Assembly: GCA_017656255.1 (NCBI GenBank)
Contig: JACDOE010000003.1
Span: 457-64,456 of the forward strand
Direction of reading: 5' to 3'
DNA from: Bacillaceae bacterium
GTDB taxonomy: Bacteria; Bacillota; Bacilli; JACDOE01
Length of the DNA stretch: 64,000 nt
The translations under genes and the position numbers were made by a program. The notes below the pieces were generated by a model. The model saw only the letters and a program-made list of their open reading frames with translations. It had not been told where the DNA came from and ran no database searches. Below are positions 1 through 43,765 of this stretch, in pieces (position 1 is the stretch's first letter; the number at the start of each line of letters is the position of its first letter).

Positions 1-3000
1 TTTAAAAAGCGCCCTCGATAATTGCCAGATTGCCCGCGGAGACTCTATTAGTTCAACCAGTGAATTGATCCCTGCGTTCACCAGTCCATTAAATAAATTA
101 TCTATCTGATACCATGCTAATTTCCCCGTCGGATCCACATAATTAACCGGATTATTATACGCATACACATACCGGTTCAAACTCAGCGGATTGGTAATAT
201 CCCCCCGCCACTCATCCAGCGACAGGAACCGCCCAATCCTCGGATTATAGTACCTCGCCTGCAGATAATAGAACTGCGTCTTCCGATCCCAGTAATAGTG
301 CGCATAGCGGTACGGATTATACTTCACCAGTTTCGTCGTTATATCTTCTTCCTCTTCGCCTTCCACACTTTCCGTTCCTGCTTCATACACATCTGCCGTG
401 ACCGTTTCCTCTGCAGACGTCGTTTCAATGGTTGTCGTATCACCACTTAACGTCGTATCTTCTTCATTCGTATCTTCAACTGTTAACGTATCACTCGTAC
501 TCTCACTGGTACGATCTTCTGACTCTTTATCCTTCTTGTTCTTCTCCCATCCTTTCGCCTTGCCTCTTCCATTACCCGGATGGAAGTCATAGTCATCATT
601 ATCATCCGTCGGTCCCAGCCGCGAACCCGGTGTCCCGTTTCCGGTGTTCAGGTCGCCGATCCAGCCGATCCCTTCCCGCACGCGTTCGCCATACCGGTTG
701 TACATGTGGGTGACCAGTCCCCACTCGTCGTACTCATAGCGGGCGGCAATGTCCCCGTTTTGATCCGTCAGAGCCACCACATCACCGTGTCCGTTATACA
801 CATACCAGAAGGTTTCCCCTTCATAGGTGATGGACAGCGGTTGTCCGCCTTCATCATAAGTATATTCCGCAATGATGTTGCCGTCCTGGTCCGTTTCTTT
901 CGTGATCTGCCAGGTGTTGCCCTTGTAGTGGTAGTTGATCACCCACTGCGGATTCCCCTGGTGGTTGAACTGGATTTTCTTCGTCCGGCGGCCCTTCGCA
1001 TCATACTCATACTTCTGACCGAAGCCGTCGGGGAACGTCACCTTCACCAGCTGGCCTTTTGCATTCCACTCATAGACACTGCGGCCGTCGGTGGTCATGT
1101 TACCGGCGTCGTCATGATCAAAATCATAGGCTTCGAAACGAATATGGTTGGTCTTGTGCACCAGTTCGTTTCGCTCGTTGTATTCCCAAGTGGTTCCCAG
1201 CACGGTGTAGCCTTTTCCGACTTCACGCACCAGCTTGAACAACTCTTCATGTTCGCCGGGCGGCAGGTTGACTTCCCCGTTGACGATCTGGTCGATCACC
1301 GCCAGGATGTTTTCCACCTGTCCGGTCATGTGTTCATTGGGACCGTCAATCAAACCCAGTTTCTTGTACAGGCCCAGTTTCTTTCCTTTTCCACGTTTGA
1401 GGGCGTTTTCGATCCCTTTTTCAGACGACTTGCCCTTTCCTTTGTTGCTGTTTCCTTTTCCGCCTCCGTTACTGCCTTTGTCTTTACTTTTTCCTCCATC
1501 GCCGGCATTTCCTTTTCCGTTTCCTCCTTTAGCCGCGAAGATCGGCATGGATTCCGGATCGGCAGACGCCAGTTTATGCGCTGACACCTCTTCCGATGTT
1601 AACCGTGCGTCGTCCGGTTGATCCAGCGATGAACTCTTATTGCCTTTTCCTTTTCCGTTACCACCTTTATTTCCTTTGTCGCGCCCTTTGCCTTTACCCT
1701 TGCCTTTTCCTTCGCCCTCACCTTCTGCTTCCAGTTCGCCTTCCTTTCCCTTGATGGCCTGCAACACCATCTCAAGAAGTTGTTCCAGTTCAATCGTTTC
1801 ATGGCGATCCAATTCTTTTCCGCCGATAATGGCGGCGCGCGATGTGCGGTTTCCCGCTCCGTCATAGGTGTAGAGGCGGATGTCTCCTTCCGGCAGGGTG
1901 ACACGGACCAGTTGCTCCCGGCTGTCATATTCATAGGCGAAATGGCGTCCGTTTTCATTGACGGCGGTCACAAAGTCCCGCTTGTTGTGCTCATATTCGT
2001 TGAAGTACAGACTTTCTCCGTTCGGTCCGGTGGTTTCTTTGGTATCGATCAGATGCCCCGGCTTATATTCATAATGTGTAGTCAGTTGATTGGGCCAGAG
2101 CAGATCCTTGATGAAACCATCGGGATCATATTTGTATTCATATTTATAATTTTTGCCGTCAATGTAGGTGGTGGTCAGCCCTCTTTTATCCCGATCATAG
2201 TCCCGGGGCTGTCCGTTGACGATCTCCAGGTCCAGATCACCGTTGTCGTCATATTTGTACTCCATTTCATCTCCGTTCGGGTAAGTGACGGTGGCCACCT
2301 GTCCGTTGTCGTAGTAAGTGTACGTCGTGGTGCCGTCCGGTGTCTTTTCCCATTTGAGAGTGCCGTCATCATAGTATTCATAATCGATCCAGCGGCCGTC
2401 CGAATGTTCTTCATAGGTCAGGCGATGCAGATAATCATAGTCATAGGCGATCCACTGTCCACCCGGTTTCGATTCGTAGACCAGATTACCCGCCGGATCG
2501 TAGTCGAATCGGAACGTGTAGGACACACCGTTTAAGTACATGATTTCCTTCGTTTTCCGGTCAGCATAGTCATACCGGTACATCGTCAATTGGCCGTTGG
2601 GATCAATCTGGGATAACCGGTTTCCATTTTTATCATAACTGTATTCGGTGATCAGCCGATCTTCGTCACCAGGTTCATCAACCCGGACCAGGTTATCACG
2701 TTCATCATAACGATAATAGGTGGTGCCGTAGACAGGCTTGTCCACCGACAACCGGTTGCCGGCGTCATCGTACGTATAGGTGTAAGTCCCTTCCCGCGGC
2801 GTAATTTTTTTCTTTAAACGGCCGGCATCATCATAGGCATACTCTATGCGGTCTCCGCGTTTGTCGGTCTCCCAGACTTTCCGGCCACCGACGTCATAAC
2901 CGAATTGATAGACGTATCCTTCTCCATCTTTTTCATAGATTTTCTGGCCGCGCAGATTATACTCCCGTTCCACATCCCGTCCCAGCGGACGGCGAATGGC

Positions 3001-6000
3001 TTTGACATAACCGGCCGGCGTGTATTCATAGCTCGTCCAGATCCCTTCCGGATCCACTTCTGTTTTCAGTTGTCCTTCTTCATCATAGGTGTAACGGGTC
3101 GTGTTGCCTCGTTCATTAGTAAACCGAATCCGCAGGCCACGGGGATCATACTCATAGCGGCGGGTGACCTTTTCACCGCCGATTCTTTTCCCTTCACGGG
3201 TTTCTTCAATAACTCGGCCTTCTTTATCATAGCCGTACACCGTGATATTTCCCAGCGGATCTTCCTGTACCACCAGGTTTCCCTGGCCGTTATAGGCCAG
3301 CTTCACTTCCGTTTTCGGTGTATCATCAGATTCATTCGCTTCTCCCAATTGTTTAAAGGACGTGACATATCCTTCCCCGTTGTAGCCAAAGATGGCGGCA
3401 TTGCCTTCCTGGTCGATTTCCAGGACACGATTGCCCGCTGTATCAAACGCCATATAACTGACACTATTATCGGGCCACTCCGTCTTGATTTTACGTCCGG
3501 AGACATCATAAACATATTCATATTCACGAATTTCCAGATCTCCGTTTCGATCATTGTATTCTTTTTTCAACGTCATCCGGCCGTGATCGTCATAATCATA
3601 GCGGATTTTCAGTCCGGAAGGCTCTTCCAATTTCTCCAGTTGTCCCAGGGCGTTAAAGTCATATTCCGTCACGGCATAATTGTTGCCGTCCAGCTGCTCA
3701 CGCACTTTTTTCTTGTTGCCCCAGGCGTCGTAATCATAGTCCACCCGCTGTGTTTTGCCATCACGGGTGACCTGTTCGATGGTATAGTCCAGTTGTTCAT
3801 ACTGGTTGTAAACATACTGTTTGGTTTTGCCTTCCTCGTTGACATGTCTGGTGATTTTACCAAACACATCGTACTCATAGGTTTCCTCTTCATTGGACGG
3901 ATGAATGGTTTTCACGACATTGCCCTGCGTATCATAGACCGTTGTCGTCTCGTGATAGACCAGCTCCCCGTCTTCATCAAAGGCAGGCGTAAGGGTCACG
4001 GTGGTCAGGCCTTCGTAGCGGTACTCGGTGGTGTACCCTTCCGCATCTGTCTCAGTCAAGATTCTTCCTCTGGCATCGTAGGTATACGAGCGAGTTCCAA
4101 GCACTTCATGACCGGGATAGATGGGATCGTCAGTGCCGGACTTCAGCTGTTCCCCGTCCCACTCCGGAATCGGGCCGCCGAAGGTTTCTGTTTGGACCTG
4201 GCCGTTTTTATCATAGGTATAACGGGTCCAGGATCCTTCCGGTGTTTTTTCTTCAATTAATTGGCCGATGGCATTATACCGGTATTCACTGACCAGAACC
4301 TGAGGCTCTGTTTCTTCCCAGTCAAAGGGAATTTCGTCATGAAGATGAACCGAGCGGTACTCCTTTTCTATGACCCGGCGATCCCACAGATCATACACAT
4401 ACTCCGTTTTTCCCCCGTCGGGGCTGGTGACGCTTTTCAGGCGCCCGTATTCATCATACTCATAGTCCGTCGTCCACTCGCCGGGATCCGTGGTTACTTT
4501 ATCCCGTTCGCCGGCCAGGTTGTACACGGTGGTGATCGTTTCTCCCACCGGATTTTTTTCCTCGATTAACAGGCCTCGGTTATCATACTTGTACTTATAG
4601 ACCAGAGGTTGTTCGGATGACCCAACCGGTTTTGATCTTTCCTCGGTCACATTCCCCATGCCATCCACTGTGTATGTGGTTTCCAGGGTTTCAGAGGTAC
4701 GGGTGATCTGGTGCCCCCCCTCATCATAGGTGTAAGCCATCGATTCCCTGCGGGTCTGGGCGCTCTTTTTGTCATACTGGACATGGGTCTGTACCTGTCC
4801 GAGTGTGTTGTAAGTCCATTCCTCAATCAGGCCATTGGGATGCTCGGCATAGATCCGCTGCCCCCGGTTGTTATACCGGTAGGTTGACGTTTTAGGCGTG
4901 CTGGAATCCGGATACAGGGTTTCCGAGATCCGGTTTCCGTTTTCATCGTACTGGTATGCATATTCCGCCTGATCCATGGCTCCGTCGCCGCTGGTATCAT
5001 AGCCATACCGGAGCAGATTTCCTTCCGCGTCATATTGATAGAGCGTGCTGTTTCCTTCACCATCCCGTTTTTCAATCAACAGTCCCCGGTCATCGTAATA
5101 TTTGGCCGTTACGATCTGGTACGGAGTGGTGCGGCCAAACGGATCACTGACATACTGTACTTTGACCATGGCCGTCAACTTTTTGCCGCTGGTGACCGGA
5201 ATATACTCCACCCGGTAGTCGTAAGGCTGTCCGCTTTCACGAATCAGATCATTATATTCGTTATACGAATAGGTCATGACGCGTCCTGCCGGGCTCCGCA
5301 TCATGGAGAGGCGATCCCGGTCATCATACTGGTACTGGGTCGTCCGCCCCAGCGGATCCGTGATTTTGACCAGGTTATTGCCGTCATAGAGATAATGGGT
5401 TTCGGCCGTTTCCAGGCCGTTTTCCGTTTCGACGACCTGTCTTTTCAGAGCGGGGCGTCCCTGTTCATCCCAGTGCCATTCATATTGGCCCAGGGGATTC
5501 ATGACGACGGCATACCCATCTTGATACCGGGCGCCGATAAATTCTTCGACCCCATCCTGGCTCCGGGTCATACTGATCCGTTCAATCCGGTTCTCACTCC
5601 CGTATTGCCAGGTGGTGGTCACCTGTCTGGCGTCAGTCACGGTATGGAGGCGGTTCAATTCATCATAGGTAAACGTGGTGGTATATCCCATCACATCGGT
5701 ATAGGTGTTGAGACGGCCCTGTTCGTCATAACCGAATCCAATTGAGCGCGTCGTTCCCGCTTCCGGACCGGGCGCTTCAATCTTTTCCAGACGCCCGGTT
5801 TCCTCATTGTAATGAAACACGATTTTATGATTTTGTGTGGTGGTGAGGATTTCCTTCAGCCGGTAATTCATGCGCAGGTATTCCGGCACTTCTTCATACT
5901 TGTAGTCGATATAATTTCCGTAACGGTCATGATGCTGCAAAATGCGGCCGTCCGGTGTAAACAGGTCGTAGGAGAGATCCTCCCAGGTGATCAGATACTG

Positions 6001-7446
6001 ATCTTTTTCATTGCGGCTTAATTGCGGATAATACTGTTGCTGTCCGCCGACATAGGTGGTATAGGACGAACCGTTTTTTTCAAACCGGTACCTGGTCCCG
6101 TCTGTGGCGATCCAGCTTACCGTACCGTCAGGCCACAGGGTGAGGGTACTGTCGAAATTAAGCGTCCATCCGTACCCCAGCCAGCCTTTGCGCCTGTTTT
6201 GATGGTTGTACACCAGTGTCGCATTCAGATCCAGTCCGATACTCGGCTGGGTAAAACCTTCAAACTCCTGCATCGCATTGCCGCTGAACAGATTGAGGGT
6301 GACATACTTGCCGGCCACCTCTCCGGACGCCTGCGGCCAGAAGGACTGATCCCCCATATGGGCCAGCACTGGATAAGCAGCGACGGTTTCCACCGTCTCA
6401 TTTCCCGCATAGTCCCGGATGGTGATAGACAGTTGCTCTTCCTGCGAACGGACGGCTGCCACCGCATGCAGCGGGTGGTCATCCATCGCGTGTTCCGACG
6501 GGCTTCCGCTTGTCTTTAACCGGTTGAGGCCGCTGACCTCATCGCGCATTTCAATCCCCAGTTGTTCACCCATATCATGGACGGCGATCAGGGCCGGAGC
6601 TTCCCGGTCCAGAATTATCTTGTTGTATTCCGGTGCATAACCGGGGGCGGTTTTGGTGACATAATCAGCCGTATCCTCTTCATCTTCCGGAGGAATTCGG
6701 AAGGTGACCGAGACGGATTCTGCTTTGAGATACCATTCATAGATGCCGTCCGGTACGTCCTGTCCGCTGACATCTTTTCCGTTCCAGGTGAAGGTGTTGG
6801 TTCCGCTGTGATTGGTCTGGGTTCCCCGAATCTGGTAAGTCGCATCGGTTCTCAAGTCATGCACATAGATGGAGACCGGGTACCCGTTTGGGGCATTCGT
6901 CGGATCTCCTTCCTGGGCATTCACCCAGCTGGACAGACGGTCATTCCAGGAAAAGGTGACCGATGTTTCACCCTGTCCCACCGGTGAAAAGGCTTCTGTA
7001 CTCTGCCCGGACACACTCAGGTAACTTCCGCCGCCTCCAGAGCGGGGCAGAAGATCCGGCATTTCTCCATCATTAAAAACCTGTACGCCGTCCAGCTCAT
7101 GGGGTTTGGGTGGTGTTTTATCCACGACCGGTTCCGGCCAGGGGGGAGCCGGTTGCTGAAGCAGTTGTTGCAGGTCGTTATCTGCTTCTGCTGTCATGGT
7201 ATTGGTTGTGTCCGTTTGCACAGTCTGCTCATCGCTTCCGCTGGTATCCGTGTCGGCGGCGACCAGCAGATTCTCCAGTTTGTCATAGGTGGTTTCCGCT
7301 GCACGGGCAGTAGATGTAAAGATGGCGAGCCAGCTGTCGGACGGAAGCAGGCCGAAGACAAGGGTGAAACTTAACACCCATGCCAGCCCGTTCCGCAGCA
7401 GGCGGCGCCATAATCGGCGTTTTTTGACATGATGATTCATGTTCAT
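1..7446 (-). CDS. Secreted RHS/YD-repeat polymorphic toxin precursor (2482 codons visible; C-terminal toxin tip runs off the left edge)
   Basis: Hand translation from ATG 7446 (SD GGAGAGGAG 8 nt upstream) gives signal peptide MNMNHHVKKRRLWRRLL..FTSTARA and an FlgD-Ig-like FTWNGKDVSGQDVPDGIYEW. Many YD repeats follow (YDxxGRL/NRL). RHS core YRYAHYYWDRKTQFYYLQARYYNPRIGRFLSLDEW..NPVNYVDPTGK lies at ~106-330. 7446 nt is exactly 2482 codons down to base 1. I translated 7446->~5200 and ~1990->1 directly. For the middle I rely on all listed minus ORFs being in another frame and on the track omitting ORFs without an in-window stop. The listed plus-strand ORFs 398-7374 look like antisense artefacts. 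Confidence 0.9.
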   Translation of the reverse strand, partial: MNMNHHVKKRRLWRRLLRNGLAWVLSFTLVFGLLPSDSWLAIFTSTARAAETTYDKLENLLVAADTDTSGSDEQTVQTDTTNTMTAEADNDLQQLLQQPAPPWPEPVVDKTPPKPHELDGVQVFNDGEMPDLLPRSGGGGSYLSVSGQSTEAFSPVGQGETSVTFSWNDRLSSWVNAQEGDPTNAPNGYPVSIYVHDLRTDATYQIRGTQTNHSGTNTFTWNGKDVSGQDVPDGIYEWYLKAESVSVTFRIPPEDEEDTADYVTKTAPGYAPEYNKIILDREAPALIAVHDMGEQLGIEMRDEVSGLNRLKTSGSPSEHAMDDHPLHAVAAVRSQEEQLSITIRDYAGNETVETVAAYPVLAHMGDQSFWPQASGEVAGKYVTLNLFSGNAMQEFEGFTQPSIGLDLNATLVYNHQNRRKGWLGYGWTLNFDSTLTLWPDGTVSWIATDGTRYRFEKNGSSYTTYVGGQQQYYPQLSRNEKDQYLITWEDLSYDLFTPDGRILQHHDRYGNYIDYKYEEVPEYLRMNYRLKEILTTTQNHKIVFHYNEETGRLEKIEAPGPEAGTTRSIGFGYDEQGRLNTYTDVMGYTTTFTYDELNRLHTVTDARQVTTTWQYGSENRIERISMTRSQDGVEEFIGARYQDGYAVVMNPLGQYEWHWDEQGRPALKRQVVETENGLETAETHYLYDGNNLVKITDPLGRTTQYQYDDRDRLSMMRSPAGRVMTYSYNEYNDLIRESGQPYDYRVEYIPVTSGKKLTAMVKVQYVSDPFGRTTPYQIVTAKYYDDRGLLIEKRDGEGNSTLYQYDAEGNLLRYGYDTSGDGAMDQAEYAYQYDENGNRISETLYPDSSTPKTSTYRYNNRGQRIYAEHPNGLIEEWTYNTLGQVQTHVQYDKKSAQTRRESMAYTYDEGGHQITRTSETLETTYTVDGMGNVTEERSKPVGSSEQPLVYKYKYDNRGLLIEEKNPVGETITTVYNLAGERDKVTTDPGEWTTDYEYDEYGRLKSVTSPDGGKTEYVYDLWDRRVIEKEYRSVHLHDEIPFDWEETEPQVLVSEYRYNAIGQLIEEKTPEGSWTRYTYDKNGQVQTETFGGPIPEWDGEQLKSGTDDPIYPGHEVLGTRSYTYDARGRILTETDAEGYTTEYRYEGLTTVTLTPAFDEDGELVYHETTTVYDTQGNVVKTIHPSNEEETYEYDVFGKITRHVNEEGKTKQYVYNQYEQLDYTIEQVTRDGKTQRVDYDYDAWGNKKKVREQLDGNNYAVTEYDFNALGQLEKLEEPSGLKIRYDYDDHGRMTLKKEYNDRNGDLEIREYEYVYDVSGRKIKTEWPDNSVSYMAFDTAGNRVLEIDQEGNAAIFGYNGEGYVTSFKQLGEANESDDTPKTEVKLAYNGQGNLVVQEDPLGNITVYGYDKEGRVIEETREGKRIGGEKVTRRYEYDPRGLRIRFTNERGNTTRYTYDEEGQLKTEVDPEGIWTSYEYTPAGYVKAIRRPLGRDVEREYNLRGQKIYEKDGEGYVYQFGYDVGGRKVWETDKRGDRIEYAYDDAGRLKKKITPREGTYTYTYDDAGNRLSVDKPVYGTTYYRYDERDNLVRVDEPGDEDRLITEYSYDKNGNRLSQIDPNGQLTMYRYDYADRKTKEIMYLNGVSYTFRFDYDPAGNLVYESKPGGQWIAYDYDYLHRLTYEEHSDGRWIDYEYYDDGTLKWEKTPDGTTTYTYYDNGQVATVTYPNGDEMEYKYDDNGDLDLEIVNGQPRDYDRDKRGLTTTYIDGKNYKYEYKYDPDGFIKDLLWPNQLTTHYEYKPGHLIDTKETTGPNGESLYFNEYEHNKRDFVTAVNENGRHFAYEYDSREQLVRVTLPEGDIRLYTYDGAGNRTSRAAIIGGKELDRHETIELEQLLEMVLQAIKGKEGELEAEGEGEGKGKGKGKGRDKGNKGGNGKGKGNKSSSLDQPDDARLTSEEVSAHKLASADPESMPIFAAKGGNGKGNAGDGGKSKDKGSNGGGKGNSNKGKGKSSEKGIENALKRGKGKKLGLYKKLGLIDGPNEHMTGQVENILAVIDQIVNGEVNLPPGEHEELFKLVREVGKGYTVLGTTWEYNERNELVHKTNHIRFEAYDFDHDDAGNMTTDGRSVYEWNAKGQLVKVTFPDGFGQKYEYDAKGRRTKKIQFNHQGNPQWVINYHYKGNTWQITKETDQDGNIIAEYTYDEGGQPLSITYEGETFWYVYNGHGDVVALTDQNGDIAARYEYDEWGLVTHMYNRYGERVREGIGWIGDLNTGNGTPGSRLGPTDDNDDYDFHPGNGRGKAKGWEKNKKDKESEDRTSESTSDTLTVEDTNEEDTTLSGDTTTIETTSAEETVTADVYEAGTESVEGEEEEDITTKLVKYNPYRYAHYYWDRKTQFYYLQARYYNPRIGRFLSLDEWRGDITNPLSLNRYVYAYNNPVNYVDPTGKLAWYQIDNLFNGLVNAGINSLVELIESPRAIWQLSRALFK

Positions 7447-7494
7447 TTTGCAATCTCCTCTCCTGATTTTGATTAATCTGAATCTCATAAGAAT

Positions 7495-7535
7495 AGAAAA
7501 AGGTCCCTGATGCCGGGAAAAAGCAATCAGGGACC
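7495..7535 (-). terminator. Intrinsic terminator inside the RHS 5' leader (possible riboswitch expression platform)
   Basis: Minus strand reads GGUCCCUGAU-N14-AUCAGGGACC followed by UUUUUCUAUUCUU. It lies ~50 nt upstream of the RHS SD/ATG. Confidence 0.6.
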
Positions 7536-7583
7536 GTGAATACAGAGATATGATGTTAACACCATGAAGTTTAGAACCTTATC

Positions 7584-7684
7584 TCCGGTACGGCAGCAGG
7601 GCAGTCATGGCCGTCGGCTGGCGGCGGCTTTAGACTCCCGGCTTTGTGTCGCCTCCTTTCGGCAGACGAAACCTTTTCTCCGGA
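7584..7684 (-). promoter_or_regulatory. Candidate c-di-GMP-I (GEMM-I) riboswitch aptamer
   Basis: Minus-strand RNA reads UCCGGAGAAAAGGUUUCGUCUGCC-GAAA-GGAGGCGACACAAAGCCGGGAGUCUAAAGCC..GACUGCCCUGCUGCCGUACCGGA. The GAAA..GACaCAAAGCC..CUAAA core resembles the Vc2 aptamer as I remember it. P1 can form as UCCGG/CCGGA. The 5' junction deviates from the GGCAAACC consensus. Confidence 0.5.
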
Positions 7685-7906
7685 ATCAACGTTCTTAGGT
7701 CTTAGGACTTTTTTCTTAATTTTTCCTTTGTATAAATTACCAGATACACTTCCATAATTCAACATTTTTCTGCAAATTTATCATTAATTTTTTAATTTAC
7801 CTGTTAAAACGTGTTATAAATGGGGATTGTTATGTTGAGCCGGTGGTGAAAGGTGATAAGTTGGAGGTTGGAGGTGAGAGGTCAAAAGCTGACGGCCGGA
7901 TTTGGG

Positions 7907-8128
7907 ATAGCGGAATTTTTTTCCGCTATTATGCGGTTTTCCTCGATTTTTTAATAAATAGGTGAGAAAATTTCCGCTATGTGCCTCAATTAAAAATTAT
8001 GCGAAGTATTCGACCCTATTAGCGGAACATTTTCCCCCTATTATTTGGAATCTCCCGCGTTTTGGAGAAATAGAGGAACAAACTTCCGTTACATATTGCG
8101 GTCCTTGATATGATTCGAGGTATTCGAC
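7907..8128. repeat. Hairpin/dyad-module array, locus L1 (4 modules)
   Basis: Modules: ATAGCGGAAtttttttCCGCTAT, AATAGGTGAGAAAATTTCCGCTAT, ATTAGCGGAACATTTTCCCCCTATT, AATAGAGGAACAAACTTCCGTTAC. Box ATTATGCGAAGTATTCGACC at 7996-8015 sits between modules 2 and 3. The same architecture recurs at 16341, 31497 and 43650. Confidence 0.85.
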
Positions 8129-8340: not shown

Positions 8341-8868
8341 TCAAAAGTCAATGCCATGGAATCCACCTAAAATCCGCGGATCATAATCAAGTTCCGCTGC
8401 AATCGTTTCCTGATGCCCGACACCATCTGAAGTTCTCCAGTGAATGATGAAATACGTGCGCTCAACAAGATCACGGACACCCAATTCATCCGGCGGATAT
8501 GAACTTCTACCCCCTGTCACAAAAGAGGCGTTGTCGTCTAAACGGTCAGCTGAGACACTATAACTGGAGTGAGGGGTGGCACCATCCTTAAAATAATCAT
8601 AGACGTCCACTTTGATTCTCCCGGTTAATTGATTGGGATCCCCTAAATACGTCACGTTTGCACTCCCCTGCATGGCTCCATGACCGGATATCCGTACAAA
8701 TTCATAGTCTGTGATATTCCAGTGTTCTCCCTGTCCCTTCATCTTAAGAAAATAACTATTGTTATGGATTGTAGTCGGGAAATAAACCTTGACGACAGTG
8801 AATGTTAGTAAATTGGTTAAGATTATAATGCCAATCATCCATTTTATATCGATTTTCATGTCCGCCAT
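8341..8868 (-). CDS. Hypothetical membrane-anchored protein (N-terminal TM helix)
   Basis: 175-aa ORF with N-terminal hydrophobic segment WMIGIIILTNLLTFTVV. AT-rich by eye. I recognise no family. Confidence 0.55.
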   Translation of the reverse strand: MADMKIDIKWMIGIIILTNLLTFTVVKVYFPTTIHNNSYFLKMKGQGEHWNITDYEFVRISGHGAMQGSANVTYLGDPNQLTGRIKVDVYDYFKDGATPHSSYSVSADRLDDNASFVTGGRSSYPPDELGVRDLVERTYFIIHWRTSDGVGHQETIAAELDYDPRILGGFHGIDF

Positions 8869-9280: not shown

Positions 9281-9455
9281 CAGGGACCCTCCCTCCATCA
9301 TCTCAGATAAGTATATGCCAGATATATGATTTCCTGACCCATCACCGAAAAAAGTTCTCTGTCAGCCCTTTGCTCTCATATATATAGATGAACACCCAGT
9401 ATCGATCCACATACAATACATACAAGAAGTCTTTGCAAAAAGGGTGTCGTTTTTC

Positions 9456-9713
9456 ATGCCGGCTATCGTGGGAACCGTGAATATCAATACCGCCAGCGGC
9501 GTGTTTAATATTGGGGATGTTCAGATCATCGCGCCCAGAAGTTTTGACAAAACCTTCGCCGGCGGCGGTTCGTTCAACGCGGGGGAAAAGCTGCTCATCC
9601 AGAACGCCCCCAGTATCATCAACATCTATGAATCGGATGATGATCCGAATTTTTACAGCCAGTATTTGCTGGATGCCGGTCAGGATGATCTGAAAAGGGG
9701 AGGGAAACGATGA
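9456..9713 (+). CDS. gerPA: Spore germination protein GerPA
   Basis: MPAIVGTVNINTASGVFNIGDV..KTFAGGGSFNAGE is a typical GerPA/GerPF family N-terminus. The internal ATG follows AAGGGTG. First gene of a 6-gene cluster. Confidence 0.8.
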   Translation: MPAIVGTVNINTASGVFNIGDVQIIAPRSFDKTFAGGGSFNAGEKLLIQNAPSIINIYESDDDPNFYSQYLLDAGQDDLKRGGKR

Positions 9714-9931
9714 TAAACTTTTATGTTCATCAAAATATTGACATCCACACCATCAAGATTGAGGGGATTTCCAACTCGTCCGTTTTTCAAATCGGCAGCG
9801 CCGGGATCATCAAACCCTTATCCCAGTTGTTTAACACAGGCGGATTTGCCCAGCCGGCACCTCCGGCAGGGCCACAACCGTTTGCACCTGCCCCGATCCC
9901 CCTGATCCCGCTCACCGAACCGACAACGTAG
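9710..9931 (+). CDS. gerPB: Spore germination protein GerPB
   Basis: 73 aa with IKIEGISNSSVFQIGSAG and a Pro-rich tail. ATGA overlap with gerPA. Second position in the operon. Confidence 0.7.
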   Translation: MINFYVHQNIDIHTIKIEGISNSSVFQIGSAGIIKPLSQLFNTGGFAQPAPPAGPQPFAPAPIPLIPLTEPTT

Positions 9932-9985
9932 GCAAAAACCGATCCTTCGTCGCATAAGCTTATAAGAAAGCGATACTTTAGAAGG

Positions 9986-10618
9986 ATGATGTCTATGTAT
10001 CTGGGGCCGGAATTGATGCGTTATTTTCAACAGATTCAGCAGCAGCTGTATGCCCAGGACAAAAAAATCGACCAGTTGAATCGAACCATCCAGCAATTGA
10101 TGCAGGAAATCAACCATCTGAAAAACAGGCAGCCGGAACCACCGGTGATCCACAATGATTACAAATTTGATTTGCTCAAAATCGAGAGGCTGGACGGCAC
10201 ACTCAACATCGGGCTCAACCCGAACGGAGCCGGTTCATCCATCGAAGAGTTTGATGTAAACCAGTCAGTTAAGGAACCGGAAATCTCTCAGCAACACCCC
10301 GAACTTTACCAGAACATTCAAAGCCAGATCAATGATTATTTTCAACATGACATCGATCAAATTTTGAATGACATCGAGGATAAATACCAGTACAAACTGG
10401 ATATGTCCTATCGAAAGCTGATTATCGATGATGTGAGAAAACAGGTCGGCAAACGGATTCTTTATTATTTAAAACAGGTCAAGCTAGACCAGGCCAAACC
10501 GGATCAACTGGCGCAAATCCAGAAAAACACAGTGGATAAGGTAAAACGGGATGTGGAAAAAACTCTGGATGCCTATATCCGGAATTTGCCCCGTAAAAAG
10601 GAGGATGACGACGATTGA
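9986..10618 (+). CDS. gerPC: Spore germination protein GerPC
   Basis: 210 aa with coiled-coil N-terminus (QQLYAQDKKIDQLNRTIQQLMQEINHLK) followed by YKFDLLKIERLDGTLNIGLNPNG, the GerPC pattern. Confidence 0.8.
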   Translation: MMSMYLGPELMRYFQQIQQQLYAQDKKIDQLNRTIQQLMQEINHLKNRQPEPPVIHNDYKFDLLKIERLDGTLNIGLNPNGAGSSIEEFDVNQSVKEPEISQQHPELYQNIQSQINDYFQHDIDQILNDIEDKYQYKLDMSYRKLIIDDVRKQVGKRILYYLKQVKLDQAKPDQLAQIQKNTVDKVKRDVEKTLDAYIRNLPRKKEDDDD

Positions 10619-10788
10619 CATATACCGTTATCAACGAGGAGCTAAAGGTTGAGGATGCTTCCATTACTTTCATCACCACATCCTCGGTCTTTTTTGTCGG
10701 TGATATTAAGACCATATCCCTGGCTACCGCTTTTGATTCACCGCCGGAAGAGGAAATCGTGGGGGTCACCATTCCACTGCTGGAATAA
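10615..10788 (+). CDS. gerPD: Spore germination protein GerPD (not in the ORF track: 57 aa, TTG start)
   Basis: TTG 10615 overlaps the gerPC stop (gaTTGAca). Product: LTYTVINEELKVEDASITFITTSSVFFVGDIKTISLATAFDSPPEEEIVGVTIPLLE. Stop TAA at 10786-10788. Confidence 0.7.
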   Translation: MTYTVINEELKVEDASITFITTSSVFFVGDIKTISLATAFDSPPEEEIVGVTIPLLE

Positions 10789-10800
10789 AAGGAGTGTCTG

Positions 10801-11178
10801 ATGTTAAACCGTAGAATCTCTTCCGTTGACCTTCTGGACATCCTGGAGTCCGGTGACAATGCCGTGATTGAAATCGGAGATTCGAGACGGATCTCACCGG
10901 AGACCCATGTGATCGCCGTACAGCGGGAAAAAGCCATTTTTTTTGAACATGAATTTTCATTCGGTGATTACGAGATATTCTTCCGGGACATTCCCCGGCC
11001 CGTCGTGAGTGAAGATGTTGAGATCACCACCCTTCATCGATCCCCTGTGATTCAGGTGAAAAATATCGATATTTTCAGTGTCTCTACGTCAGGCGTCGTC
11101 CATATCGGATCAGGCGACAACATCCGTGCTGAAGCCCGTATTAAACACATTCGGCACCTGTTAAGAGAAGACGATTAG
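10801..11178 (+). CDS. gerPE: Spore germination protein GerPE
   Basis: 125 aa in fifth position, preceded by AAAGGAG. Contains ..VIEIGDS..IQVKNIDIFSVSTSGVVHIGSGDN.. Confidence 0.75.
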   Translation: MLNRRISSVDLLDILESGDNAVIEIGDSRRISPETHVIAVQREKAIFFEHEFSFGDYEIFFRDIPRPVVSEDVEITTLHRSPVIQVKNIDIFSVSTSGVVHIGSGDNIRAEARIKHIRHLLREDD

Positions 11179-11220
11179 TTGCGGTGATTGCCATTCATTC
11201 ATTTTGAGGAGGTATTCCCA

Positions 11221-11436
11221 TTGCCATCGATCGTAGGAGGGATCAATATAAATAGTAATGCGGGGACCGTAAATTTTGGAGACAACCTGAACATCTCCCC
11301 GGTCATAAATTCCAAGGAAATCACCGGCCAGGGGTCCGGCAATATTGGAAATGTCGTGTATACGGCTAACGGCACGAACTTAAATAACGCCGTTGATCCG
11401 GATCTGGTTGATCAGCCCAATGCGGGAAACCTGTAA
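11221..11436 (+). CDS. gerPF: Spore germination protein GerPF
   Basis: TTG 11221 lies 8 nt after GAGGAGG. LPSIVGGININSNAGTVNFGD is the GerPA/F signature. The track start at 11188 lacks an SD. Confidence 0.75.
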   Translation: MPSIVGGININSNAGTVNFGDNLNISPVINSKEITGQGSGNIGNVVYTANGTNLNNAVDPDLVDQPNAGNL

Positions 11437-11468
11437 AACAGGCGGGCACCGTTACCCTCCTGTTTTTT
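11437..11468 (+). terminator. Terminator of the gerP operon
   Basis: AACAGG-N16-CCTGTT followed by TTTTTAT, directly after the gerPF stop. Confidence 0.5.
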
Positions 11469-16340: not shown

Positions 16341-16540
16341 GTCGAAAATAATAAGGAACTTTATTTCCGCTATACCTTGAAAAAGAAGAATTTTAAATTT
16401 TTAAGTGAAAAATATTCCGCTATCCGCTTCAAATACTTCGCATAATATTGAGTTGCTTAACGGAAACCATTTCCTCTATTTTTTATAAAATGGGTAAAAC
16501 GTGGTGAAATAAAGGAAAAGATTTCCGCTATTATCCCGGT
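16341..16540. repeat. Hairpin/dyad-module array, locus L2 (4 modules, inverted relative to L1/L3)
   Basis: Modules: AATAAGGAACTTTATTTCCGCTAT, AAGTGAAAAATATTCCGCTAT, TTAACGGAAACCATTTCCTCTATT, AATAAAGGAAAAGATTTCCGCTATT. The box appears as its reverse complement, CAAATACTTCGCATAAT, at 16430-16446. Confidence 0.85.
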
Positions 16541-31496: not shown

Positions 31497-31762
31497 AATA
31501 GCGGAAATTTTTTCCGCTATCCTTCCATTTCGCCGGTTTTGAAAAAAATAACGGAAAAGGTTTCCGTTAATCAGACCATTTCCTATTATGCGAAGTATTC
31601 AACCGGTAGTAACGGAAATCTTTTCCCCTATTTTTTATAGATCACCCCGTTATCATAAAATAGCGGAAAAGATTTCACCTATTTTCCCTGGCTAGTATTC
31701 AAAATAAAATAAACCAATCAATCATCCTTTGTCGGTAACGGTAACTCTTTTTTCCGCTATCG
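31497..31762. repeat. Hairpin/dyad-module array, locus L3 (5 modules)
   Basis: Modules: AATAGCGGAAATTTTTTCCGCTAT, AATAACGGAAAAGGTTTCCGTTAA, AGTAACGGAAATCTTTTCCCCTATT, AATAGCGGAAAAGATTTCACCTATT, GGTAACGGTAACTCTTTTTTCCGCTAT. Box ATTATGCGAAGTATTCAACC at 31585-31604. Confidence 0.85.
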
Positions 31763-43649: not shown

Positions 43650-43765
43650 AAAGAGCGGAAATTTTTCCGCTATTATTTTTGATTTCCACCATTCTTATAA
43701 TAGAAGAAAAAAGTTCCGCTATTTTTTGCATTTGATATTATGGATATTATGGAAAGTGTACGATT
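43650..43765. repeat. Hairpin/dyad-module array, locus L4 (truncated, 2 modules plus degenerate box)
   Basis: Modules: AAGAGCGGAAATTTTTCCGCTATT, AATAGAAGAAAAAAGTTCCGCTATT. Degenerate box ATTATGGAAAGTGTACGA at 43746-43763. Confidence 0.75.

Follow-up and report, generated by a model that had tools for sequence, protein, structure and literature searches.

The window considered here (the whole stretch of DNA that was analysed, 64,000 nucleotides of contig JACDOE010000003.1 from a Bacillaceae bacterium) carries on its minus strand the 5' part of a very long RHS/YD-repeat gene. The question that this locus raises is whether the second messenger cyclic di-GMP (c-di-GMP) governs the expression of a putative toxin through the leader of the toxin's own mRNA and, if so, in which direction. 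Judged from the sequence, positions 7695–7492 (minus strand) very probably form a class I c-di-GMP riboswitch (GEMM-I, RF01051) in the RHS 5' leader. The best overall explanation of the locus, towards which we lean, is that this riboswitch works in OFF mode by an exchange of pairing partners among four strands.

Aptamer and terminator of the RHS leader

The whole window was scanned on both strands against all 4227 Rfam families at the gathering threshold. The sole match was to RF01051 (c-di-GMP-I) at 7683–7589 on the minus strand; it spans model positions 1–87 of 87, with 43.1 bits where the gathering score is 35 (E = 4.3e-5 on both strands of the 64 kb, 5.3e-7 for an 801-nt region). The original prediction had proposed a c-di-GMP-I riboswitch here on the basis of a minus-strand leader sequence, which proves to have been transcribed exactly, and the Infernal search thus bears the proposal out. 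The aptamer lies on the gene's own strand and ends 143 nt from the ATG, with a terminator in between.

In the model alignment, P2 is formed by GUCU-g-CC and GG-AGGC and capped by a GAAA tetraloop, and P3 by AGC-C-GGG-AGUC and GACU-G-CCC-U-GCU, giving 10 bp with one C/U mismatch and one bulged G. The internal loop of P3, GUCUAAAG.../...CAUGAC, aligns with the consensus CUAA/AuG, the equivalent of the tetraloop receptor. P1 is a helix of 14 bp composed of UUCCGG/CCGGAG (7685–7680 with 7588–7583), UUG/UAA and AGAAC/GUUCU, across two 1x1 loops. That P1 and P3 can form, as had been suggested, is confirmed by the minimum free energy (MFE) fold, which contains both. For the contact positions we use the Vc2 numbering and assignments (G20, A47 and C92; C44; G83), which we take to carry over to this aptamer from the Vc2 crystal structures. 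All three ligand-contact bases G20, A47 and C92 are present (AAAAG-G.., GACAC-A-AAG and CUG-C-CG, respectively), and so are C44 and G83, the positions of the predicted tertiary pair (GAC and UG-C versus a consensus of GAC and AG-C). Position 20 has been described as a selectivity factor and not a hard filter (PMC9262584).

An irregularity in the 5' junction had already been pointed out in the original prediction, and it is real: the junction reads GGUUUCG in place of the conserved GGCAAAC, with G21-C46 retained. One part of the difference, the replacement of C22-G45 by U22-A45, is a compensatory exchange. A pattern search of metagenomes (AAGGU..GAAA..GACACAAAGC) returned 121 matches, and 52 distinct ones are clear c-di-GMP-I aptamers of the form GGUAAAC...GACACAAAG with U22-A45, which makes this pair a frequent variant in nature. 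By all testable features except the AAA bulge, the RNA is a member of RF01051 and presumably binds the same ligand.

The terminator expected ahead of the Shine-Dalgarno (SD) sequence was also found (Table 1). It reads GGUCCCUGAU-U-GCU / GGC-AUCAGGGACC, then UUUUUCUAUUC, and is a predicted intrinsic terminator. It begins about 37 nt after P1 and does not overlap it, the aptamer with its P1 ending at 7573 and the terminator starting at 7535. A simple pattern scan overlooked this hairpin, probably because of its rule of 3–8 nt for the loop versus the 9-nt loop of the longest perfect-stem reading.

The linker between aptamer and terminator also contains a 12-codon open reading frame (ORF), MVLTSYLCIHGP*, at 7527–7565 (minus strand), the UGA stop of which falls within the 5' arm of the terminator. 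A weak AAGG located 11 nt upstream is a possible SD sequence. This ORF is probably a chance occurrence; its translation would interfere with the terminator.

A proposed strand exchange and the probable direction of control

Aptamer and terminator occupy separate stretches of the leader and coexist in the MFE fold and in the fold with the aptamer enforced. What may couple them is a predicted antiterminator in which 7691–7671, comprising the P1 5' strand and the A-rich junction, pairs with the terminator loop and 3' arm at 7524–7505 over 18 bp (duplex energy -22.2 kcal/mol); an equally good pairing was found in 1 of 2000 shuffles. A helper helix between 7594–7576 and the linker at 7554–7533 would contribute another 16 bp (11 + 5; -16.3 kcal/mol), and here 20 of 2000 shuffles were as good. 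Since equilibrium folding predicts no switch, the terminator being favoured with or without P1, we relied on a scan of transcript lengths. The MFE structure of the window leader is the antiterminator fold only for transcripts with their 3' end at 7514–7505, at which point it beats the P1-enforced fold by 1–8 kcal/mol, and it reverts once the terminator arm is complete. Because the polymerase holds the last nucleotides of the nascent RNA, this interval would correspond approximately to the decision window at the U-run.

The exchange may be pictured as follows. Binding of c-di-GMP at the three-helix junction would lock the long P1 (7695–7680 with 7588–7573); with P1 locked, the hairpin 7535–7502 and its U-run would form, and transcription would end before the SD and ATG. 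Without ligand, the linker 7554–7533 would capture the P1 3' strand and the aptamer tail (7594–7576), and the P1 5' strand thus freed (7691–7671) would pair with the terminator loop and 3' arm (7524–7505) as they emerge, so that the terminator would stay open and the RHS gene be transcribed. The outcome of such a four-strand exchange would be a toxin made at low c-di-GMP and off at high c-di-GMP.

A second leader with the same arrangement is available for comparison. Public data yielded just one close homologue of the RHS N-terminus, P0001, which is encoded on metagenome contig L001 (50% identity; 47–56% by tblastn). In L001 the order is again aptamer, terminator, SD and RHS: the aptamer, of the c-di-GMP-I clan, lies at 136–222 (best with RF03167, 68.7 bits against 59, E = 4e-15), the terminator at 255–287 (-19.8 kcal/mol, then U6) in a position equivalent to that in the window, and an SD precedes the ATG at 342, with the RHS ORF aligning from residue 1. 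Beyond the aptamer core there is little similarity in sequence between the two leaders, from which it follows that the arrangement, and not merely the sequence, has been kept. Aptamer and terminator are non-overlapping in L001 as well and coexist in its MFE or aptamer-enforced fold. Its predicted antiterminator joins the aptamer 3' strand (206–220) to the terminator 5' arm (251–265) over 13 bp in a fold 1.7 kcal/mol above the MFE, and in the length scan the antiterminator pairs belong to the MFE structure while the 3' end is at 265–281.

Both leaders resemble Cd1, which is located in the flgB leader of Clostridioides difficile and combines a class I aptamer with an intrinsic terminator downstream of it. 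In this OFF switch, aptamer and terminator can be present together, in competition with a transiently stable antiterminator built from aptamer strands, and the terminator fold is the thermodynamic end state (PMC9262584); the length scan of the window leader behaves likewise. In the ON switch pilM the aptamer and terminator folds are mutually exclusive (PMC9262584). An OFF direction is suggested because, in both leaders, aptamer and terminator coexist and are opposed by a competing antiterminator, which is the Cd1 design. On the strength of these folding models the riboswitch probably acts as a transcriptional OFF switch, in which c-di-GMP leads to termination; the original prediction had not committed itself to either direction. 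The likeness to Cd1 has its bounds: the target of Cd1 is the flagellar operon and that of the window riboswitch an RHS toxin, and the window junction has UUC where Cd1 has AAA. Moreover, the usual antiterminator consists of the aptamer 3' strand and the terminator 5' arm, as in L001, whereas that of the window would join the P1 5' strand to the terminator's loop and 3' arm and hold the P1 3' strand in a second helix.

An antiterminator formed by the linker only, which would favour an ON switch, was also considered; no convincing pairing of this kind was found in the folds.

Weighing the alternatives

Several observations weigh against an OFF-mode riboswitch of this design. At full length and without ligand, the terminator fold stands at -74.1 versus -68.3 kcal/mol (-70.3 kcal/mol with P1 blocked) and the pair probability of the terminator is 0.88–0.94; since the terminator fold remains thermodynamically favoured, by 2–6 kcal/mol, the switch must be kinetic. 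Among genomic 26-mers, 5 of 768 pair equally well with the terminator arm. The extended P1 of 14 bp is unusually stable for a ligand-dependent helix, and its 5' strand is an atypical partner for an antiterminator. At positions 23–25 of the aptamer, UUC replaces the highly conserved AAA, and it was seen in none of about 60 genuine-looking U22/A45 aptamers from metagenomes (AAA in 52, AUA in 5 and UAA in 2); the affinity for the ligand could be weakened as a result. The RHS gene of L001 (342–2480) contains an in-frame TGA at codon 18, an Arg in the window protein, and a frame change near L001:2455 between two tblastn segments, and may be a pseudogene, suffer from assembly errors of a single run or be recoded. 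In addition, no RNA-seq run containing the window sequence was found in public data, and in a soil-metagenome run sharing 12% of words the leader is not covered. The analysis shows the family to which the aptamer belongs, the presence of the terminator, the identity of the gene and the preservation of the arrangement in one homologous locus; ligand binding, the antiterminator pairing and the direction of control are points that we infer.

A genuine c-di-GMP-I riboswitch could also be an ON switch, in which the ligand prevents termination, so that cells in the sessile or biofilm state, with high c-di-GMP, would induce the RHS toxin. Both polarities exist among class I c-di-GMP riboswitches (PMC9262584), toxins that act by contact make biological sense in dense biofilms, and the nearest-neighbour model, which gives termination without ligand, allows for a default state that is 'terminated'. 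We nevertheless consider this polarity unlikely. The terminator forms fully in both leaders when the aptamer or P1 is enforced, no linker antiterminator compatible with the folded aptamer was obtained in the fold to the end of T5, and the overlap of aptamer and terminator, which is the hallmark of the pilM ON switch (PMC9262584), is absent here (7573 versus 7535). A somewhat less likely alternative is that the aptamer has decayed, the UUC at 23–25 having abolished or cut binding, with the leader serving as a constitutive attenuator or being otherwise regulated. This would agree with the rarity of UUC just described, with a score of 43.1 bits that is just 8 bits over the gathering score, and with a long P1 and a strong terminator that are both stable without ligand. 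However, the known ligand-contact and tertiary-contact bases are all intact, and U24-A43 and C25-G42 can form Watson-Crick pairs (in the folds, a helix of 7669–7661 with 7656–7649), which closes the internal loop and leaves C44 facing U23. Since these two pairs replace the internal loop while C44 stays unpaired, the change appears to be compensated and not random, and from these folds we read the UUC junction as a structurally compensated variant. Furthermore, both P1 strands have matching alternative pairings, the retention of which would be unexplained if the switch were dead. The junction may be regarded as a natural test of how important the AAA bulge is for ligand binding.

Two further explanations concern the identity of the RNA, and both have little to recommend them. 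It is quite improbable that the aptamer is one for a different cyclic dinucleotide, such as 3'3'-cyclic GMP-AMP (3'3'-cGAMP), or belongs to the variant class c-di-GMP-I-GGC (RF03167), even though the L001 leader scores best with RF03167, the window junction is atypical and G20 is no hard filter (PMC9262584). Both aptamers carry G20, A47 and C92, whereas the RF03167 consensus has G at 47; GACACAAAG in the window and GACGCAAAG in L001 have A where that consensus, GACGCGAAG, has G. The best clan member for the window aptamer is RF01051. The match of L001 to RF03167 is probably due to its short P3 without a canonical tetraloop receptor and not to membership in the variant class. The 'GGC' of the family name presumably refers to positions 20/47/92. 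Membership of the window aptamer in RF03167, which goes with G47 and a short P3 lacking the canonical receptor, was rejected on account of A47 and the better match to RF01051. The RNAs of the GEMM-I group that are selective for cGAMP (GEMM-Ib) carry A at position 20; a 3'3'-cGAMP riboswitch was likewise rejected, since the window and L001 have G20. The least probable explanation, and a very unlikely one, is that the covariance model was matched by chance and that the RNA does not function as a riboswitch. The score is admittedly moderate and the conserved CAAA is missing, but the E-value of 4.3e-5 holds for the whole window and all families, the match is on the right strand and in the right position upstream of a gene and is followed by a terminator, and the one close homologous locus has an aptamer from this clan in the corresponding position.

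We thus return to a c-di-GMP-I riboswitch in OFF mode as the preferred explanation. A fuller version of it is that a Sec-exported Gram-positive interbacterial toxin of the RHS/WapA type is directly controlled by c-di-GMP through its own mRNA and deployed at low c-di-GMP, that the P1 5' strand sequesters the terminator loop and 3' arm, and that the aptamer tolerates UUC for AAA. Taken as a whole this combination is tentative, and we would put it forward as possible but short of probable. If the OFF logic is true, the messenger of the motile-to-sessile switch would be directly tied to a spore-forming Firmicute's use of a toxin, either contact-dependent or secreted, in parallel to the indirect chain that leads from Vc2 via TfoY to the Vibrio type VI secretion system (T6SS).

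The RHS gene, related systems and genomic setting

The ATG at 7446 starts an ORF of at least 2482 codons that exits the window at its left end. Its N-terminus, MNMNHHVKKRRLWRRLLRNGLAWVLSFTLVFGLL...TARA-AE (aa 1–49), resembles a Sec signal peptide by eye alone. A Pfam scan gave a weak match to FlgD_ig and identified aa 385–455 as DUF6531, while PF05593 (RHS_repeat) matched in 13 stretches (E = 4.5e-105) and the YD repeats of TIGR01643 with E = 5.6e-94. The RHS-associated core (TIGR03696) is found at aa 2371–2441 with 65 bits against a cut-off of 32.5, and its end reads ..NPVNYVDPTGK, i.e. the DPxG motif. About 40 aa of the variable C-terminal domain are inside the window; the remainder, together with the toxin tip and the immunity gene, lies beyond the left end. 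The giant RHS toxin gene of the original prediction therefore stands as regards the RHS/YD-repeat ORF and its core, and the part that would make it a toxin is located outside the window. By architecture, the product is a WapA-like RHS/YD-repeat polymorphic toxin, with predicted export by Sec and putative toxin activity.

The repeat shell contains inserts that are unusual for RHS proteins, namely Lys/Gly-rich low-complexity segments at aa 1909–1937 and 1971–2011 (window 1414–1722, minus strand) and an acidic, Ser/Thr/Glu-rich stretch at aa 2307–2369 (window 340–528, minus strand), which stops where the core match begins (aa 2371).

WapA of Bacillus subtilis, which functions in contact-dependent inhibition, and other Gram-positive RHS toxins have a Sec signal, a YD/RHS shell, a core with DPxG and a variable C-terminal toxin; shell and core match those of the window protein, whose Sec signal and toxin are putative. 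They differ at the N-terminal region, which is FlgD_ig-like with DUF6531 in the window protein and has wall-binding repeats in WapA. No report of a riboswitch upstream of wapA or of any RHS gene was found in the full-text literature searched, the coverage of which is incomplete.

The distribution of the linkage was examined with several searches. A search seeded with P0001 gave only RHS proteins at 22–30% identity, and none of the four loci that were fetched had an Rfam match. Conversely, no RHS gene was found in the flanks of about 60 other metagenomic c-di-GMP-I loci. These two results suggest that the linkage of riboswitch and RHS gene is real but narrow, and it seems confined to this RHS subfamily. 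A scan of species-representative genomes, based on an alignment of both N-termini with patterns that fell in FlgD_ig, recovered unrelated Ig-domain proteins only, plus one match in Paenibacillus curdlanolyticus (30% identity, without an Rfam match). There were no matches in a metagenome protein-pattern scan on the DUF6531 region or in a tblastn search of the PLSDB plasmids, and a protein search with RHS aa 100–420 gave zero matches, P0001 included.

Among known riboswitches, Vc2 of Vibrio cholerae is located upstream of tfoY. It shares with the window the aptamer class and the G20/A47/C92 triad, as well as a tie between c-di-GMP and interbacterial killing. The expression platforms differ, and so does the link to a weapon: for Vc2, whose host is Gram-negative and has a T6SS, it is indirect and runs via a regulator protein, whereas in the window, from a Gram-positive spore former, the toxin mRNA itself would carry the riboswitch. 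In Vibrio, TfoY and the T6SS are induced when c-di-GMP is low (PMC6618264).

Bc1 and Bc2 of the Bacillus cereus group precede genes for a chemotaxis-type protein and a collagen adhesion protein, targets that differ from an RHS gene, and Bc1 has two terminators versus one in the window leader. Like the window riboswitch they belong to class I and to the Bacillales, and they act via rho-independent terminators in long expression platforms (PMC11218506). The riboswitch class itself is not new; c-di-GMP-I is among the most abundant and best-studied. What is new is modest, namely an RHS toxin gene as an uncommon target, and the UUC junction and the use of the P1 5' strand as antiterminator are minor structural curiosities. 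Because this class is known for a very broad set of targets among genes for surface, motility and secreted proteins, a specialist would not be very surprised.

The features of the leader and its surroundings are listed in Table 1. If the candidate sigma-A promoter holds, transcription would start near 7727. A consensus promoter scan gave a different candidate, TTAACA-16-AATGAT, at 7807–7780.

Table 1. Position of the leader elements, the RHS gene and a neighbouring operon in the window
Feature	Position	Strand	Description and basis
RHS/YD-repeat polymorphic-toxin gene	1..7446	-	3'-incomplete; at least 2482 aa; ORF and domain searches
Shine-Dalgarno sequence AGGAGAGGAG	7455..7464	-	8 nt 5' of the ATG; read from the sequence
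Intrinsic terminator (predicted)	7492..7535	-	13-bp stem 7535–7502 with one bulged U and a 7-nt loop; U-rich tail 7501–7492; -21.5 kcal/mol
Linker/switching strand (proposed), AUCAUAUCUCUG...ACGGU	7533..7554	-	pairs with the aptamer 3' end and P1 3' strand (7594–7576); constrained folds
Extended P1 3' strand, CCGGAG-A-UAA-G-GUUCU	7573..7588	-	MFE folds
c-di-GMP-I aptamer	7589..7683	-	RF01051; P2 hairpin with GAAA tetraloop, GACACAAAG junction, P3 with CUAA../..AUG tetraloop-receptor-like internal loop
Extended P1 5' strand and A-rich junction, AGAAC-G-UUG-A-UUCCGG-AGAAAAGGU	7671..7695	-	MFE folds; also the proposed antiterminator strand
Candidate sigma-A promoter	7734..7762	-	-35 TTGAAT 7762–7757; 17-nt spacer with TG 7742–7741; -10 TAATTT 7739–7734; by eye
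gerP-type spore germination operon	9400–11450	+	GerPC at 9986–10618, E = 3e-51

The presence of a gerP-type operon with GerPC shows that the source is an endospore-forming member of the Bacillales. The neighbourhood is chromosomal, with GerPC, a copper ATPase, a Mn catalase, glycerol kinase and glycerol-3-phosphate oxidase among others. GGDEF or EAL domains were not found among the 22 ORFs, a subset of those in the window, that were scanned against Pfam. Upstream of the RHS leader, an ORF at 8341–8868 (minus strand, 175 aa) has no Pfam match and no identical protein on record, and may not be a real gene.

Finally, a palindromic repeat of 23 nt, ATAGCGGAAAAnnTTTCCGCTAT, is dispersed over the window (7907–8042, 16509–16531, 31498–31682 and 43700–43722). 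With at most 3 mismatches allowed, 12 strand matches were counted, located at 8 sites, versus 0 expected. The repeat forms clusters of 3–4 copies in intergenic DNA, one of which is directly upstream of the RHS promoter region. Contigs from the source run break at this element and its word depth reaches about 800 versus 85, which indicates that it is multi-copy in the genome. It may be a REP-like (repetitive extragenic palindromic) or MITE-like (miniature inverted-repeat transposable) element, or a set of binding sites for a regulator.

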